Shown one piece after another: positions 649-8,511 of a stretch of 64,000 nt of DNA. Origin of the DNA: Promethearchaeota archaeon (GTDB lineage Archaea > Asgardarchaeota > Lokiarchaeia > Sigyniarchaeales > SOKP01); NCBI GenBank assembly GCA_029838195.1, contig JALGVJ010000005.1, positions 64,001 to 128,000 on the forward strand, read 5' to 3'. The position numbers were made by a program, and so were the translations under genes. The notes under the pieces were generated by a model. It saw only the letters and a list, made by a program, of their open reading frames with translations, was not told the origin of the DNA and did not search any database. Every line of letters begins with the position of its first letter. The first letter of the stretch is position 1.

Positions 649-1125
649 ATGGATTCTTCACGAGATTTTCATGAAGATGAGAAGGAATTAAAAGAAATTT
701 TACGCACGATCGTTAATAGCACGGCCGGCATTAAATATTCCTTGATTATTGATGATACAGGATTAACCCTCTTAAGTCATTCAAAATTTAATTTGACTAA
801 TGATGAGATGATTTCTGTGGAAAAAATTGGAGCAATAGGGGGCGCCGTGTTCATTGCAGGAGAAGAGCAAGGAGAGGTTTTAGGGTATGGTCATATCAAC
901 ATGCAGATTACTGAATATAATAAAGGGATGATATTTTCAGTAAAAGCTGGAAAAGGCATTCTCTGCCTTGCTACGGATAAGAACGTGAACATTGGATATG
1001 TTAGGGCGATTACTAAAAAATTTGCTCCAAAAATAAAAAAAGTACTTGAAACTTATTTAGAAGAGGACAGTTCTAAAGGGAATAAATTAAAAGAATTATT
1101 AGATTCAGATTCTATTTTGATTTGA
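649..1125 (+). CDS. Roadblock/LC7 (MglB-like) domain protein
   Basis: 'GIKYSLIIDDTGLTLLS...EKIGAIGGAVF...ITEYNKGMIFSVKAGKGILCL...NIGYVR' is the typical Roadblock signature. Confidence 0.85.
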   Translation: MDSSRDFHEDEKELKEILRTIVNSTAGIKYSLIIDDTGLTLLSHSKFNLTNDEMISVEKIGAIGGAVFIAGEEQGEVLGYGHINMQITEYNKGMIFSVKAGKGILCLATDKNVNIGYVRAITKKFAPKIKKVLETYLEEDSSKGNKLKELLDSDSILI

Positions 1126-2286: not shown

Positions 2287-3408
2287 TTAAGGATTTTTTT
2301 CGTTTTTAGGAAGACGTCCATATCGATAACACATGTAAATATCCTCCCCTAACACGTCGCCTGTTTCAACATAAGCTCGATATCTACATCCACCTCTACA
2401 TTGATTTAAAAACTCACAATTAATTTCAAAACATTTCAGATCTTTAATATTCCAATTTAATCTTTCTTGTATTTTCCTCCAGCTCTGTTTTACCCCTAAT
2501 TCAAACACGTTTCCTAAATCATTTTCACTGAAGAATCCACATTTCGAAATATTCCCTAAAACATCTATAGCCATGATATTTGGCCCACATGCTAAATCCT
2601 TAAAGGAGGTTTCTGACTCGTAAAAAACACCCCATCCATAAGACTTTAAGACTTCTGCTCCTTTTTTACCGGAAATTGCATATTTTTCACGAATGTCTTT
2701 CGGAATGGATTCGTCATAGGTGGGGATGTCTAATATCCAATTTTTAATAGGCCCTAAATTTTTAATGAATTGTTTAAGGGCATTAAATTCATTTACATTG
2801 CGAGCATGAATCATGGTATTTATGGTAACATGAATATCGTGGTGTAATAAAAGTTTAATTCCTTCAATAGTATCTTGGAAACATTTAACATTTCTAAATT
2901 CATCATGCGTATCTTTTAATCCATCTAAGCTTACAAAGACTTCAAAATAATTTTCCTTCAGTAGAGGTAATAGTTCTTTTTTTTGTTTAATTAATGTACC
3001 GTTCGTTAACAAAACTTTTTGTAAAGGAACTTTTTTGAGAAATAGAAGTAATTGTTTCAAGTTTCCATATAAAAATGGTTCTCCTCCCGTCAGAATTATT
3101 CTTAACCCGTGTAATTCATAAAAATCCCTAATTAATTTTATTAAATCTTCTATTGCTATATCTTGTTGCTTCTTATTCGTGAGATAACAATGCTTGCATT
3201 GCAAATTACATTTCTCGGTGATATTAATCATTAATTTCGTTAGATATGGTTCTTTAAAAATATTCTTTTCCGGTAAATTAAGATGCTCCTTTGATACCAT
3301 GGCCTCGTTAGTCATGGGAAAAGGGGAGGATTGAATGATACCAAGTTCTATGAAATTCTTGAATGCATCTTGAATTTCTTTTCTTTTTTCGGGAAGATAT
3401 TCATCCAA
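2287..3408 (-). CDS. Radical SAM/SPASM domain protein (main part)
   Basis: CNLQCKHC cluster motif, TGGEP, TNG; SPASM Cys pattern ACGPN...GNISKC...CFEINCEFLNQCRGGCRYRAY...YMC. Confidence 0.9.
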   Translation of the reverse strand: MDEYLPEKRKEIQDAFKNFIELGIIQSSPFPMTNEAMVSKEHLNLPEKNIFKEPYLTKLMINITEKCNLQCKHCYLTNKKQQDIAIEDLIKLIRDFYELHGLRIILTGGEPFLYGNLKQLLLFLKKVPLQKVLLTNGTLIKQKKELLPLLKENYFEVFVSLDGLKDTHDEFRNVKCFQDTIEGIKLLLHHDIHVTINTMIHARNVNEFNALKQFIKNLGPIKNWILDIPTYDESIPKDIREKYAISGKKGAEVLKSYGWGVFYESETSFKDLACGPNIMAIDVLGNISKCGFFSENDLGNVFELGVKQSWRKIQERLNWNIKDLKCFEINCEFLNQCRGGCRYRAYVETGDVLGEDIYMCYRYGRLPKNEKNP

Positions 3409-3946: not shown

Positions 3947-4726
3947 ATGAGTGAACAGGATAATGGTATTGAAAAGAGAGATAATAAACGCTCTCAAATG
4001 AAAATCAATATTATTTTACTACTTTTTCTCGGTCTCATCATAATTGTCACTATTCTATCGGCTCTTTATAAAAATATCGGAGAATTCTTTAACTTGACAA
4101 ATTGGTTTGACTCTGAAACTCTTGAAGCCATACCAATTTATAGTGCTATAGGATTTACGGTACTTGTCTGCTTCATAGGAGCGATTATACCCATTCCGAT
4201 CCCTTATCCTCTTCCCATTACTGCCTTTACAGCTACTTGGTTGAATTCTAATGAGAATGCATGGTTCTTAATTACCCTATTAGTATTATTTGCCGCACTC
4301 TCCAATACATTAGGAGACATGTTAGATTGGTTTATAGGTCGAGGCGCTCAAGGATTGTTGAGTAAAGAATCCCCTGAATTACAAAATCCATGGAGTCAAT
4401 TGATTCTAAGAAAACCTAAGATTATTCCCCCCATAATTTTATTATTTGGTGCGACTCCTCTTCCCGAATCGATTCTCTTTACTACTTTGGGGTTTTTGAA
4501 ATATAATAAAAAAAAAGTATTAATATATTGTTTTATCGGAAAAATTATCATGATGGTATCTTTTGCTCTTTTAGGAATTGTGTCTTTAGGGTTCTTATCC
4601 CTTTTTTCCGAAGAATCTAGCCCCAATGGTTGGATAAGCGGCATTATCACGCTTTATATTCTCTGGGGAATCATCGTATTAATGGTGAAATTCAAACCTA
4701 AATTGAAAGAAGAAAAGGAGGGGTAG
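3947..4726 (+). CDS. VTT/DedA (SNARE-associated) family membrane protein
   Basis: Multiple TM helices; IIPIPIPY, 'NTLGDMLDWFIGRG', 'FGATPLPE...LGFLKY...FIGK' motifs. Confidence 0.75.
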   Translation: MSEQDNGIEKRDNKRSQMKINIILLLFLGLIIIVTILSALYKNIGEFFNLTNWFDSETLEAIPIYSAIGFTVLVCFIGAIIPIPIPYPLPITAFTATWLNSNENAWFLITLLVLFAALSNTLGDMLDWFIGRGAQGLLSKESPELQNPWSQLILRKPKIIPPIILLFGATPLPESILFTTLGFLKYNKKKVLIYCFIGKIIMMVSFALLGIVSLGFLSLFSEESSPNGWISGIITLYILWGIIVLMVKFKPKLKEEKEG

Positions 4727-4860
4727 AAATACTTTCTTTTTAAATTATTATTTATTAAAATGTTGACACCATGTCTCCTTTTTTTTAATTTTAAAATATA
4801 ATCTTAAAATTTTATTTAAATCACCCCATTAATTGCATAAAGAATAAACTTTTCTGAAAA

Positions 4861-5211
4861 ATGAGATTAACTGAAGATGCTATAAAAGTCATTCAAGAAC
4901 AGCACGAAGAAATCTTAAAAGAGGATGAATCGAACACCCCTGCTCTCTTAATATATCAATATTACACGAGATCATGATCCAGAACGTCTTGCACCATCGT
5001 GGTTCGACTATTTCCAAAGAGCCAAATCTTGGCCCATGAAGATAAAATAAAAAAATGGACTGAAATAGAAGTAGGTGATAAAAAAATCGAAGTTTTCTTA
5101 GAAAAAACTCTTCTCGGTGAATTAAAAAACCCTGAAGATTTCATCCTCGATGGTCAGATCTGGAAAATGGTCAAATGGAGTCGAAGTTATTTATTCTTGA
5201 AAAATAAATAA
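4861..5211 (+). CDS. Putative selenoprotein, HesB/IscA-like fold, 116 aa with Sec (UGA at 4975-4977)
   Basis: ATG 4861 reads MRLTEDAIKVIQ...ALLIYQYYTRS-TGA-SRTSCTIVVRL, in frame with ORF 4999..5211; SECIS-like hairpin just downstream. Confidence 0.8.
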
Positions 5212-5224
5212 AAATAGAAAAAAG

Positions 5225-5260
5225 ATGACCTAATCTTAAAAAACCTAGAAGATTAGTGAT
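5225..5260 (+). promoter_or_regulatory. Eukaryote-like (Lokiarchaeal type) SECIS element in the 3' UTR
   Basis: ATGA-C-CTAATCTT-[AAAAAACCTAG]-AAGATTAG-TGAT: AUGA/UGA kink-turn quartet, perfect 8-bp stem, unpaired A run at the 5' side of the apical loop. Confidence 0.8.
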
Positions 5261-5344
5261 TTACGGCTGCAACCGTTTTTCCTCATTCCTTTTTTTTCTC
5301 GTGCTTTTTCATTGCCCATTGAACTCTCTCATCTCTTTAAAATG

Positions 5345-5533
5345 CTATTTTCCTACCATGGAACCTAAATCATTTTTTTTCATTGATACCTCTACTTTTT
5401 CCAATCTATCTAACGCTTCAATAATGTGCTCACTTGATAAATAACAAGGAAAATGTTTCTTCAATGCTGATTTATCATTATTTTTTAGATATTCGGTAAT
5501 TTGATCCCAAATTTCCTCTTCTGATCTTTTCAT
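5345..5533 (-). CDS. Small hypothetical protein
   Basis: 62-aa ORF with protein-like composition; preferred over the overlapping + strand ORF. Confidence 0.5.
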   Translation of the reverse strand: MKRSEEEIWDQITEYLKNNDKSALKKHFPCYLSSEHIIEALDRLEKVEVSMKKNDLGSMVGK

Positions 5534-6614: not shown

Positions 6615-6722
6615 TTAGCACGCATCTCCTCCACACTTACAGGAGAGACTAATGCATGCATCTCCACCGCATTTACAGCTTACGGCTTCAATCTTTTTCT
6701 TTTCTTTTTTTACGATTTTCAT
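6615..6722 (-). CDS. 35-aa Cys-rich peptide MKIVKKEKKKIEAVSCKCGGDACISLSCKCGGDAC (RiPP precursor-like or metallothionein-like)
   Basis: Manual translation; the duplicated core is encoded with synonymous differences (agc tgt aaa tgc ggt gga gat gca tgc vs tcc tgt aag tgt gga gga gat gcg tgc); AAGGT SD-like element upstream, TATA box upstream, T-run downstream. Confidence 0.85.
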   Translation of the reverse strand: MKIVKKEKKKIEAVSCKCGGDACISLSCKCGGDAC

Positions 6723-6949: not shown

Positions 6950-7717
6950 TTAAGGTGGGGAGGATTTTTTAAAGGATTGGAATAATTCTTCGATTTGTTC
7001 ATAGGAGCCTAGAAGATTTTTAATTTTGGGGTTGCTTAATCCTTTGATGGCATCGCCTTCATAGAATTTTTTACCATCTTTTAAGATAAAGACTTTTTGA
7101 GCCCATTTTTCGACAAAAAAAAGGTGGTGGGTCGTGAATAAGATGGTCATTTTTTCTTGAGTGCGCAAGGTTTCGATAATTTTGATGTGATTATGAATGG
7201 ATTGAAAATCTAGATTAGCAAACGGTTCATCGAGGATGAGCAATTTAGGCTTAAGCACGAGCAAGCCAGCGAGGGCGGCTCTTTTTTTTTGCCCCCAAGA
7301 GAGATTAAAGGGGGATTCATTTTTATAGTGTAAGAGATTTACGGCTTTTAAAGCCCATTCCGTGCGTTTTTGGACCTCCTCTTCGGGTAATTTTAGATTT
7401 CGCGCGCCAAATGCCACGTCTTCGGCGATAGTAGGGGCGAAGAGTTGGTCATCGGGGTTTTGGAATAAGAATCCGATTTGTTGGCGTATTTTCCAGAGTT
7501 GTTTTCGATTTCTTGTTAAAGTTTTTCCAAATATCTTAATGGTCCCGGATTTAGGTTTTAATAATCCGACCATGAGTCGAAGTAAAGTAGATTTTCCGGC
7601 ACCATTATTTCCGAGTAGGGCATAAATTGATTCTTGTTCGATTTGCAAGCTGATATTTTCAAGAGAAAATCCTGAGTTATATTTAAAACTAAGGTTTTCA
7701 ATTTCTACTGCAAGAAT
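6950..7717 (-). CDS. cbiO: ECF transporter ATPase (CbiO/NikO); start extended beyond the called TTG at 7648
   Basis: GNNGAGKST, FQNPDDQLFAPT, LSWGQKKR, ILDEP; upstream in-frame 'ILAVEIENLSFKY' is the usual first ABC strand. Confidence 0.9.
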   Translation of the reverse strand: MLAVEIENLSFKYNSGFSLENISLQIEQESIYALLGNNGAGKSTLLRLMVGLLKPKSGTIKIFGKTLTRNRKQLWKIRQQIGFLFQNPDDQLFAPTIAEDVAFGARNLKLPEEEVQKRTEWALKAVNLLHYKNESPFNLSWGQKKRAALAGLLVLKPKLLILDEPFANLDFQSIHNHIKIIETLRTQEKMTILFTTHHLFFVEKWAQKVFILKDGKKFYEGDAIKGLSNPKIKNLLGSYEQIEELFQSFKKSSPP

Positions 7718-8511
7718 AGGGCATAAACCTCCTGATAGAATGCTTTCAAGTCAAGGAAAAAAAGAAAAGAGATCACGAGGAGAAGGAATCCTAATAACGT
7801 TAATGCGTCCCAAATTTTCAATTTTTTTTTAGAAAAGGTGATTTCACCGGAAAAGCCCCGCATTTTAAGGCTTTCATAAAGACGCTCGCTACGGTCCATG
7901 TTGATGATAATGCTTTTTGCCATAATATAAGCGTGGGTTTTCAATTTTGACCAATACGATGTAATTTTTTTCCCCCGTAATTCTTGAGCCTCGAGAATTT
8001 TTTTATTAGAATCAGCCAATATGGGGAGATAATGAAGCATGATCACGAGGCTTCCAATGAAGAAAGAAGGAATGACTTTAGCCTTGGTGAGAGCTTCGAT
8101 AAATTCCGAATAGGTGAGAGAAGACATAAACGCCATGAAAATGAAAATCGCCCCAAAAATCCTCAAGAAGAGAAGGAGTGCTAAGATGATTCCTTCTTGA
8201 TAAATGATAAGGGTGATGCCGAAGAAAAGGCGATACGCAACTGTATTCCCTATATAGAGGGGAAGAAAAATGGTGATGAGCAGGATGAAAGGGAGAACTT
8301 TTAAGATCCGCTTTAAGATTCTACTTAATTTTAATTTAGCGATTATGGAAATTAGAAAAGTAGAGAGAATTAGGGTGAAAATGAGAAAAATGTCATTTAC
8401 AAGTAAAAAAGGCACTACAAAAATAAACGGTAAAAGGAACCGGATTAGAGGATGAATTGTAGACAAAATTGTGGATTCGTGCTCATGTCTGAAGGGTAAT
8501 ACCGAGTCCAT
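7705..8511 (-). CDS. cbiQ: ECF transporter T component (CbiQ/NikQ)
   Basis: IHPLIR N-terminal motif, TM helices, 'AQELRG' and 'SLKMRGF' coupling-helix Arg motifs. Confidence 0.9.
   Translation of the reverse strand: MDSVLPFRHEHESTILSTIHPLIRFLLPFIFVVPFLLVNDIFLIFTLILSTFLISIIAKLKLSRILKRILKVLPFILLITIFLPLYIGNTVAYRLFFGITLIIYQEGIILALLLFLRIFGAIFIFMAFMSSLTYSEFIEALTKAKVIPSFFIGSLVIMLHYLPILADSNKKILEAQELRGKKITSYWSKLKTHAYIMAKSIIINMDRSERLYESLKMRGFSGEITFSKKKLKIWDALTLLGFLLLVISFLFFLDLKAFYQEVYALFLQ

Follow-up and report, generated by a model that had tools for sequence, protein, structure and literature searches.

A divergent selenoprotein family of predicted IscA/HesB-type fold, with Loki-type SECIS elements, in Lokiarchaeial genomes

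Positions 4861-5211 on the plus strand of the window, i.e., the whole 64,000-nt stretch of Promethearchaeota archaeon DNA analyzed here, are almost certainly a single misannotated gene for a 116-residue selenoprotein with a Loki-type SECIS element. The protein represents a divergent selenoprotein family of predicted IscA/HesB-type fold that is unlisted for Asgard archaea in published surveys (PMC4989117 and PMC11227280, in their available text, and PMC13188914). Taken as a whole, we consider it highly probable that the locus is a selenoprotein gene decoded through a Loki-type SECIS, whose product has an IscA/HesB-type fold and a putative active role for Sec39 and Cys44.

A single reading frame across an in-frame UGA

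The frame opens with the ATG at 4861 and continues through 38 sense codons, the TGA at 4975-4977 and 77 further sense codons to the TAA at 5209-5211. The read-through product is 116 aa long and reads ...YYTRS-U-SRTSC... around the UGA, where U39 and C44 form a U-x4-C motif. The coding features are as follows.

4861-5211, plus strand: selenoprotein coding sequence (almost certain), 116 codons plus the TAA at 5209-5211; the family HMM spans positions 1-116, on both sides of the TGA, and the full-length AlphaFold2 (AF2) model has a pLDDT of 93.6
4975-4977, plus strand: in-frame UGA, the predicted Sec codon (U39); TGA at this column in 40 of 40 aligned TGA-bearing homologues, Cys in two paralogues
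4990-4992, plus strand: Cys44 codon TGC, the U-x4-C partner; near-invariant in alignment A2, Ser in both Cys paralogues read

The initial annotation had already described this 116-aa frame with its in-frame UGA, ending at 5211, which is the last base of the TAA. It had also argued that standard pipelines would truncate the gene, and this is what happens: translation table 11 yields two ORFs of 38 aa and 70 aa, and database fragments of homologues are cut at the same place. Contigs from run X1, which may be the sample the genome came from, cover 4850-5012, including the TGA, with zero differences from the window sequence, and those from run X2 cover 5157-5400 only. One low-depth contig from another study carries a G>T change at 5251, which would disrupt one pair of the stem described below.

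Family distribution and the TGA column

Searches that started from the window protein alone gave few relatives: the sole match of a word-index protein search was the window's own C-terminal fragment, and a scan of the genome contigs returned no related loci. An exhaustive phmmer search yielded 14 matches, some of them N-terminal pieces of 38 aa and C-terminal pieces of 59-73 aa, broken at the very point where the window gene is split. We set aside one candidate, P0005, an 877-aa tandem-repeat protein that matches residues 33-70 twelve times, as a repeat artefact.

The extent of the family was established by a six-frame search of whole genomes covering 161 genomes of the class. Homologues occur in 56 of these. 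The taxonomic family to which this genome belongs accounts for 53 of them, out of its 134 other genomes, often with two or three copies per genome; homologues come from 13 of 30 genera. In about 67 copies, the matched region contains a single TGA. To look for Cys or TGA at the UGA column had been proposed as a check, and its outcome favors a selenoprotein: the TGA falls at the same column in all 40 aligned copies, where it is the sole invariant column of alignment A2, and the Cys at +5 is near-invariant. Three copies are TGA-less, all in tandem arrays (genomes G047, G052 and G053), and the two of these paralogues that were read have Cys at the Sec column and Ser at +5.

Two subfamilies can be told apart. 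The window copy belongs to subfamily A (motif RS-U-SG.FC..VQL), and the second copy in this genome (contig C7, 31772-32131) belongs to subfamily B (motif S.-U-TM.FCGN...NVYG). The tandem arrays of G047, G052 and G053, all from one genus, are trios made up of a subfamily B gene with Sec, a Cys paralogue without SECIS and a subfamily A gene with Sec. At two of the tandem-array loci (L006:1983-2324 and L007:1981-2322, both minus strand), two genes that encode membrane proteins of unknown family come after the trio.

All seven full-length homologues from the databases (P0006, P0007, P0010-P0012, P0014 and P0016) show W at the Sec column, as would be expected if the UGA were read as tryptophan or by near-cognate readthrough, with the hairpin merely stimulating readthrough or stabilizing the mRNA. 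Several observations speak against such a reading. The only tRNA with anticodon UCA listed by Aragorn is the tRNA-Sec (contig C3, 36948-37040); the TGA-less paralogues have Cys at the Sec column, not Trp; and the hairpin shows specific SECIS descriptors common to the VhuU and VhuD genes of this genome. Five family members end in TGA, and in two of them the stop lies inside the SECIS AUGA, so TGA also serves as a true stop in these genes. At all other Trp positions the family uses TGG, and for each W-bearing database protein, TGA occupies the Sec column in its closest genomic relative (by tblastn, the W-bearing homologues are 41-76% identical to the fetched loci, none being identical). Because of these last two observations, the W in the database homologues probably comes from gene callers that read TGA as Trp. 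Decoding of the UGA as tryptophan appears very improbable. Such W residues in public proteins would hide the family from searches for Sec/Cys pairs.

A Loki-type SECIS element behind the gene

The hairpin ATGA-C-CTAATCTT-AAAAAACCTAG-AAGATTAG-TGAT begins at 5225, 13 nt past the stop, and is the first of three features in the 3' region.

5225-5259, plus strand: Loki-type SECIS core, with AUGA at 5225-5228, a stem at 5229-5237/5249-5257 (8 pairs plus a basal C.U), an 11-nt loop at 5238-5248 (AAAAAACCUAG) and GA at 5258-5259
5263-5276, plus strand: ACGG-CUGCAA-CCGU, a second small hairpin immediately after the SECIS core, conserved in the family; all three tested pairs change on both sides
5276-5280, plus strand: five-T run, a possible archaeal transcription terminator; the T-run after hairpin 2 is kept in subfamily A

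According to the available text of Mariotti et al. (2016; PMC4989117), a lokiSECIS lies close behind the coding sequence and has a 9-bp stem, preceded by AUGA and followed by GA (rarely AA), that carries an 11-nt loop; the first five bases of its loop are mostly A, and the last is an ultraconserved G, usually preceded by A. The window element (5225-5259) agrees with this description at every point. In the family alignment A4, its ATGA has an invariant G, with the T and final A kept in at least 90% of the sequences. Its nine-position stem consists of 8 standard pairs and the basal C.U, a position that is unpaired in 13 of 32 family members, and both the terminal G of the 11-nt loop and the GA after the stem are invariant across the family. 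The hairpin that had been proposed at this distance from the stop, with an AUGA/GA design, thus fits the published lokiSECIS descriptors. Its designation as a eukaryote-type SECIS holds in the published lokiSECIS sense and fails in the sense of the Rfam eukaryotic SECIS model: across 4700-5500, no SECIS family, SECIS_1 included, was among the matches of Rfam covariance models up to E 10, a mismatch to be expected because the lokiSECIS stem is shorter.

Neither the bare motif nor the stability of the hairpin distinguishes it from chance. The strict pattern (ATGA, then nine stem positions of which at least 8 pair, around a loop of 9-13 nt that reads AAA...G, and finally GA or AA) occurs at 3 sites in the 4.5-Mb genome, and since four Markov-1 simulated genomes gave 1-3 hits each, the motif count is uninformative. 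The folding energy of the isolated hairpin is unremarkable relative to shuffles (z -1.48), many of which are as good. What does exceed chance is the position of the sites behind TGA-bearing ORFs, the conservation of the TGA column and the covariation of the stem. All three real sites lie directly 3' of TGA-containing ORFs, the other two being behind VhuU-type genes (FDCULSCAAH). Among family members, the strict script found a SECIS downstream of 29 of the 39 testable TGA-bearing copies, and the other 10 have slightly variant elements, i.e., an ACGA or AUGU core, one extra mismatch or a one-base bulge. No hairpin was found behind the two Cys paralogues read.

Covariation was assessed in a 32-sequence alignment, in which pairing holds in 93% of the cells and both partners change in 10 of the 12 pairs (7 of 9 in the SECIS stem, and the three tested in hairpin 2). 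None of 500 shuffles did as well, and when the partner was shifted by 1-3 columns, the paired fraction fell to 42-53%. The covariance model R1, built from 31 relatives with the window excluded, finds 5220-5261 of the window at 59 bits (E 1e-7) and the element of the paralogue at 67.8 bits. Across the genome it matches nothing else above 27 bits, and its weak matches at 20-27 bits lie behind no TGA-bearing ORF. R1 also misses the VhuU and VhuD SECIS elements of the same genome, the model being too family-specific.

The persistence of the TGA and the covariation of the stem bear directly on whether the gene might be disrupted, or the locus consist of two short ORFs (38 and 70 aa) that have nothing to do with each other, followed by a fortuitous hairpin or an ordinary terminator. 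The two ORFs under table 11, a motif that is by itself no rarer than chance genome-wide and an unremarkable folding energy would all suit such a locus. A nonsense mutation, however, would not persist at one column in ~67 copies from 13 genera with both halves conserved, the stem covaries, and the full-length model is one compact domain with a pLDDT of 93.6. The first two of these already contradict a broken gene, to which we assign a very low probability.

In part of subfamily B, a lower stem, in which the last codons pair with sequence beyond hairpin 2, clearly closes a three-way junction, with a duplex of -8 to -12 kcal/mol (z -3 to -4.8). For the window SECIS an enclosing lower stem is unsupported, at -3.2 kcal/mol for the duplex vs -3.7 for shuffles. 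Related arrangements were seen elsewhere in this set of genes. Behind the SECIS core, an additional short hairpin whose loop is in most cases UGCR was observed in three of the four VhuD genes that carry TGA (downstream regions of G000 C1:7185-7553, C75:15316-15684 and C84:56471-56839), in both VhuU genes and in the window family; for VhuD, VhuU and subfamily B, the three-way junction is closed by a lower stem. In both VhuU-type genes (at G000 C34:92270-92330 and C35:169205-169268, both minus strand and outside the window), the true stop TGA is the UGA of the SECIS AUGA; the two family members with the same overlap are both in L029.

Selenocysteine machinery and proposed decoding

The presence of Sec machinery in the genome had been named as a further check. 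SepSecS lies beside the tRNA-Sec (389.5 bits) and EFsec/SelB is on the same contig (255.6 bits, above cut-off). A PSTK-like gene is full length and scores 153.6 bits, below the equivalog cut-off of 290.5 bits. SelD has the classic in-frame TGA, with a longer 3' structure of its own, and four MvhD/VhuD genes contain one or two TGA codons, three of them with a SECIS of the same design downstream. All components searched for were therefore found, PSTK as a gene under the strict cut-off. With the TGA fixed at one column, Cys in the TGA-less paralogues, a covarying Loki-type SECIS and Sec machinery in place, the proposal of the initial annotation that the gene encodes a selenoprotein is upheld.

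We propose that the transcript would start before 4861 and end at about the T-run at 5276-5280, and that the UGA at 4975-4977 would be decoded by Sec-tRNA(Sec) brought by archaeal EFsec. The decoding signal would be the kink-turn (AUGA...GA) SECIS hairpin in the 3' UTR, 247 nt 3' of the UGA and 13 nt 3' of the true stop, and the mechanism would be that published for the Lokiarchaeota VhuU, HdrA-VhuD and PrxL genes. We infer that Sec is actually inserted at position 39.

Predicted fold and relation to IscA/HesB proteins

AlphaFold2, run on a 28-sequence alignment, gave a model with a pLDDT of 93.6 and a pTM of 0.83. It combines a helix at the N terminus with six long strands, and residue 39 lies in the turn that links those at 27-37 and 42-52. 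A Foldseek search, likewise proposed at the outset, returned IscA and SufA as the best PDB matches (E 3.6e-3, TM ~0.5). In an independent search of 48,161 chains, the top 7 matches were all IscA/SufA/DsrR/HesB-type (Z 8.2-5.1, 84-91 residues, spanning the whole model); the next match was partial, at Z 4.0.

Sequence models gave a different picture. For the window protein, no Pfam family matched at E up to 10, PF01521 included. TIGR01911 did not match it either (the best of 28 relatives reached E 0.054), and its UxGP motif is absent, the window protein reading USRT. Nor did NF041239 (3 of 28 relatives at E 0.026; cut-off 40 bits), and the window protein has no Cys adjacent to Sec (S-U-S). PDB sequence searches, with profiles and with one cousin, gave chance matches only. 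With every HesB/IscA sequence model unmatched, the cut-offs of TIGR01911 and PF01521 place the window protein outside both families. More distant TGA-bearing cousins in other Asgard families (loci L035-L041) keep the Sec column and come closer. Against NF041239 they score at most 37.5 bits across almost the entire model, short of the cut-off of 40, and against PF01521 they reach E 2e-4, albeit with only 22 bits vs a cut-off of 26.3. When the family and cousins were compared with canonical Asgard PF01521 proteins by hhalign, the match was weak (E 6e-4, probability 28%) and placed the Sec column on the GGC*G cysteine.

The earlier description of the protein as HesB-like therefore stands for the predicted fold (by AF2, Foldseek and the chain search, with the weak hhalign match) and falls for sequence, where no HesB/IscA model matches. 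Overall, the HesB/IscA fold of the window protein, as modeled, is well supported, and Sec39 is likely equivalent to the first ligand cysteine of IscA (Cys35). The cluster ligands of IscA/HesB proteins are three conserved Cys, one after strand 2 and a C-x-C in the C-terminal tail; the C-terminal C-x-C is absent from the window protein.

This missing pair of ligands and the resemblance of U-x4-C to a redox couple raise the question of whether the protein might be a genuine selenoprotein whose likeness to IscA is just a common small alpha/beta arrangement, i.e., a thiol/selenol oxidoreductase unrelated to Fe-S carriers. A Z of 8.2 is within the range common for models without clear relatives, the Foldseek E is just 3.6e-3 at a TM of ~0.5, and the HMMs of the HesB/IscA group leave the window protein unmatched. 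Against this, the top seven structures all belong to the IscA/SufA/HesB group and align over the whole chain before the gap to Z 4.0, the TGA-bearing Asgard cousins approach both PF01521 and NF041239, and hhalign sets Sec on the IscA cysteine. We thus regard an unrelated oxidoreductase as quite unlikely and retain the IscA/HesB-type fold.

On that fold, the turn that joins strands 2 and 3 would hold Sec39, whose position probably corresponds to that of the first cluster-ligand cysteine in IscA; Cys44 lies five residues further on, and the two may form an active pair on the beta2-beta3 hairpin. They could act as a selenenylsulfide redox couple, or together bind iron, an Fe-S cluster or another soft metal through selenolate and thiolate ligands. 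The site would probably be completed across a dimer, as in A-type carriers. We infer a redox or metal site as the function of the protein.

Genomic context and possible role

No canonical PF01521 protein was found in this genome or in any of the 25 genomes sampled from its family, and of 151 genomes sampled across the phylum just 5 had one. Given this absence, the Sec-containing IscA-fold proteins may be the A-type Fe-S carriers of the lineage, with a selenolate as cluster ligand, a role that we put forward as a speculative and on balance rather unlikely one. It would tie the maturation of Fe-S proteins to selenium supply.

The window copy lies between a gene for a VTT/DedA-like membrane protein and small minus-strand ORFs, and its neighbors (VTT/DedA-like, radical SAM, DUF2934 and an ECF-type ABC pair) give no functional lead. 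Among 30 loci of relatives, a P-type cation ATPase adjoins the family gene in 21, two membrane proteins of unknown family do so in 14, and aconitase in 10, from 4 genera; these counts are not independent because the genomes are related. The adjacency of aconitase would fit the reading of these proteins as A-type Fe-S carriers.

Two further ORFs of the window were noted in passing. The first, at 649-1125 (plus strand), has a Roadblock/LC7-type match (Pfam MAPKK1_Int, 26.8 bits); Roadblock/LC7-type proteins are eukaryote-like signature proteins typical of Asgard archaea. The second, at 6615-6722 (minus strand), is a 35-aa ORF that ends in two copies of SCKCGGDAC and may be a small Cys-rich peptide or a chance ORF. 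It adjoins the ECF-type ABC ATPase/CbiQ pair (6950-8511, minus strand), a few kb from the radical SAM gene (2287-3408).

Position among catalogued Asgard selenoproteins

In their available text, PMC4989117 reports five Loki selenoprotein families and PMC11227280 seven across more than 400 Asgard genomes, which were searched only with previously reported families; the main text of the latter mentions neither HesB nor IscA. A 2026 review (PMC13188914) repeats that Asgard list and gives TIGR01911 and NF041239 as families of other prokaryotes, and a full-text literature search for an Asgard HesB selenoprotein returned reviews only. The suggestion that the family was uncatalogued in Asgard archaea is thus confirmed as far as these three lists go, the first two in their available text.

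The family described here adds one to the seven Asgard selenoprotein families of published surveys. It is common, being present in 53 of the 134 searched genomes of the Lokiarchaeial family, yet its members are annotated as fragments or with W at the Sec position. It also supplies ~40 more natural Loki-type SECIS elements, with clear covariation and a conserved extra arm, a set useful for defining an element thought to be ancestral to the eukaryotic SECIS.

Comparison with known systems

The closest structural likeness is to the A-type carriers IscA and SufA (PF01521; PDB 1r94, 1s98, 1x0g and 2d2a), with which the window model shares a fold at Z 8.2 and 7.5 over 87-91 residues. In a weak profile comparison, its Sec aligns to their first ligand Cys. 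The window protein differs from them in having Sec for Cys and an extra Cys at +5, and in lacking the C-terminal Cys-x-Cys.

NF041239, the CC/Se motif family of (seleno)proteins predicted in Moorella thermoacetica, offers the best sequence-level link, with cousins at 37.5 bits. All scores nevertheless remain below its 40-bit cut-off, and the partner Cys of the window family stands at +5, whereas that of NF041239 is adjacent to Sec.

TIGR01911 is the HesB-like selenoprotein of Methanococcales and anaerobic bacteria. Like it, the window family consists of small single-domain proteins of (predicted) HesB/IscA fold with Sec in the turn after strand 2. The motif of TIGR01911 is UxGP (PMC13188914), and most subfamily A members read U-S-G. 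The window protein, in contrast, reads U-S-R-T-S-C, without Pro, and goes unmatched by the HMM, and its gene carries a Loki-type SECIS, not one of the euryarchaeal GAA_A type.

As for the decoding signal, the window element differs from the lokiSECIS in serving a gene family unlisted in the available text of PMC4989117 and PMC11227280, in the C.U mismatch at the pair next to AUGA, and in the conserved extra hairpin with a UGCR loop after the core, a feature undescribed in the same text of both sources. Its architecture is the same as that of the lokiSECIS, or Asgard type I eSECIS-like element (PMC4989117; Huang et al. 2024, PMC11227280; available text of both), and is also found behind the VhuU and VhuD genes of this genome.
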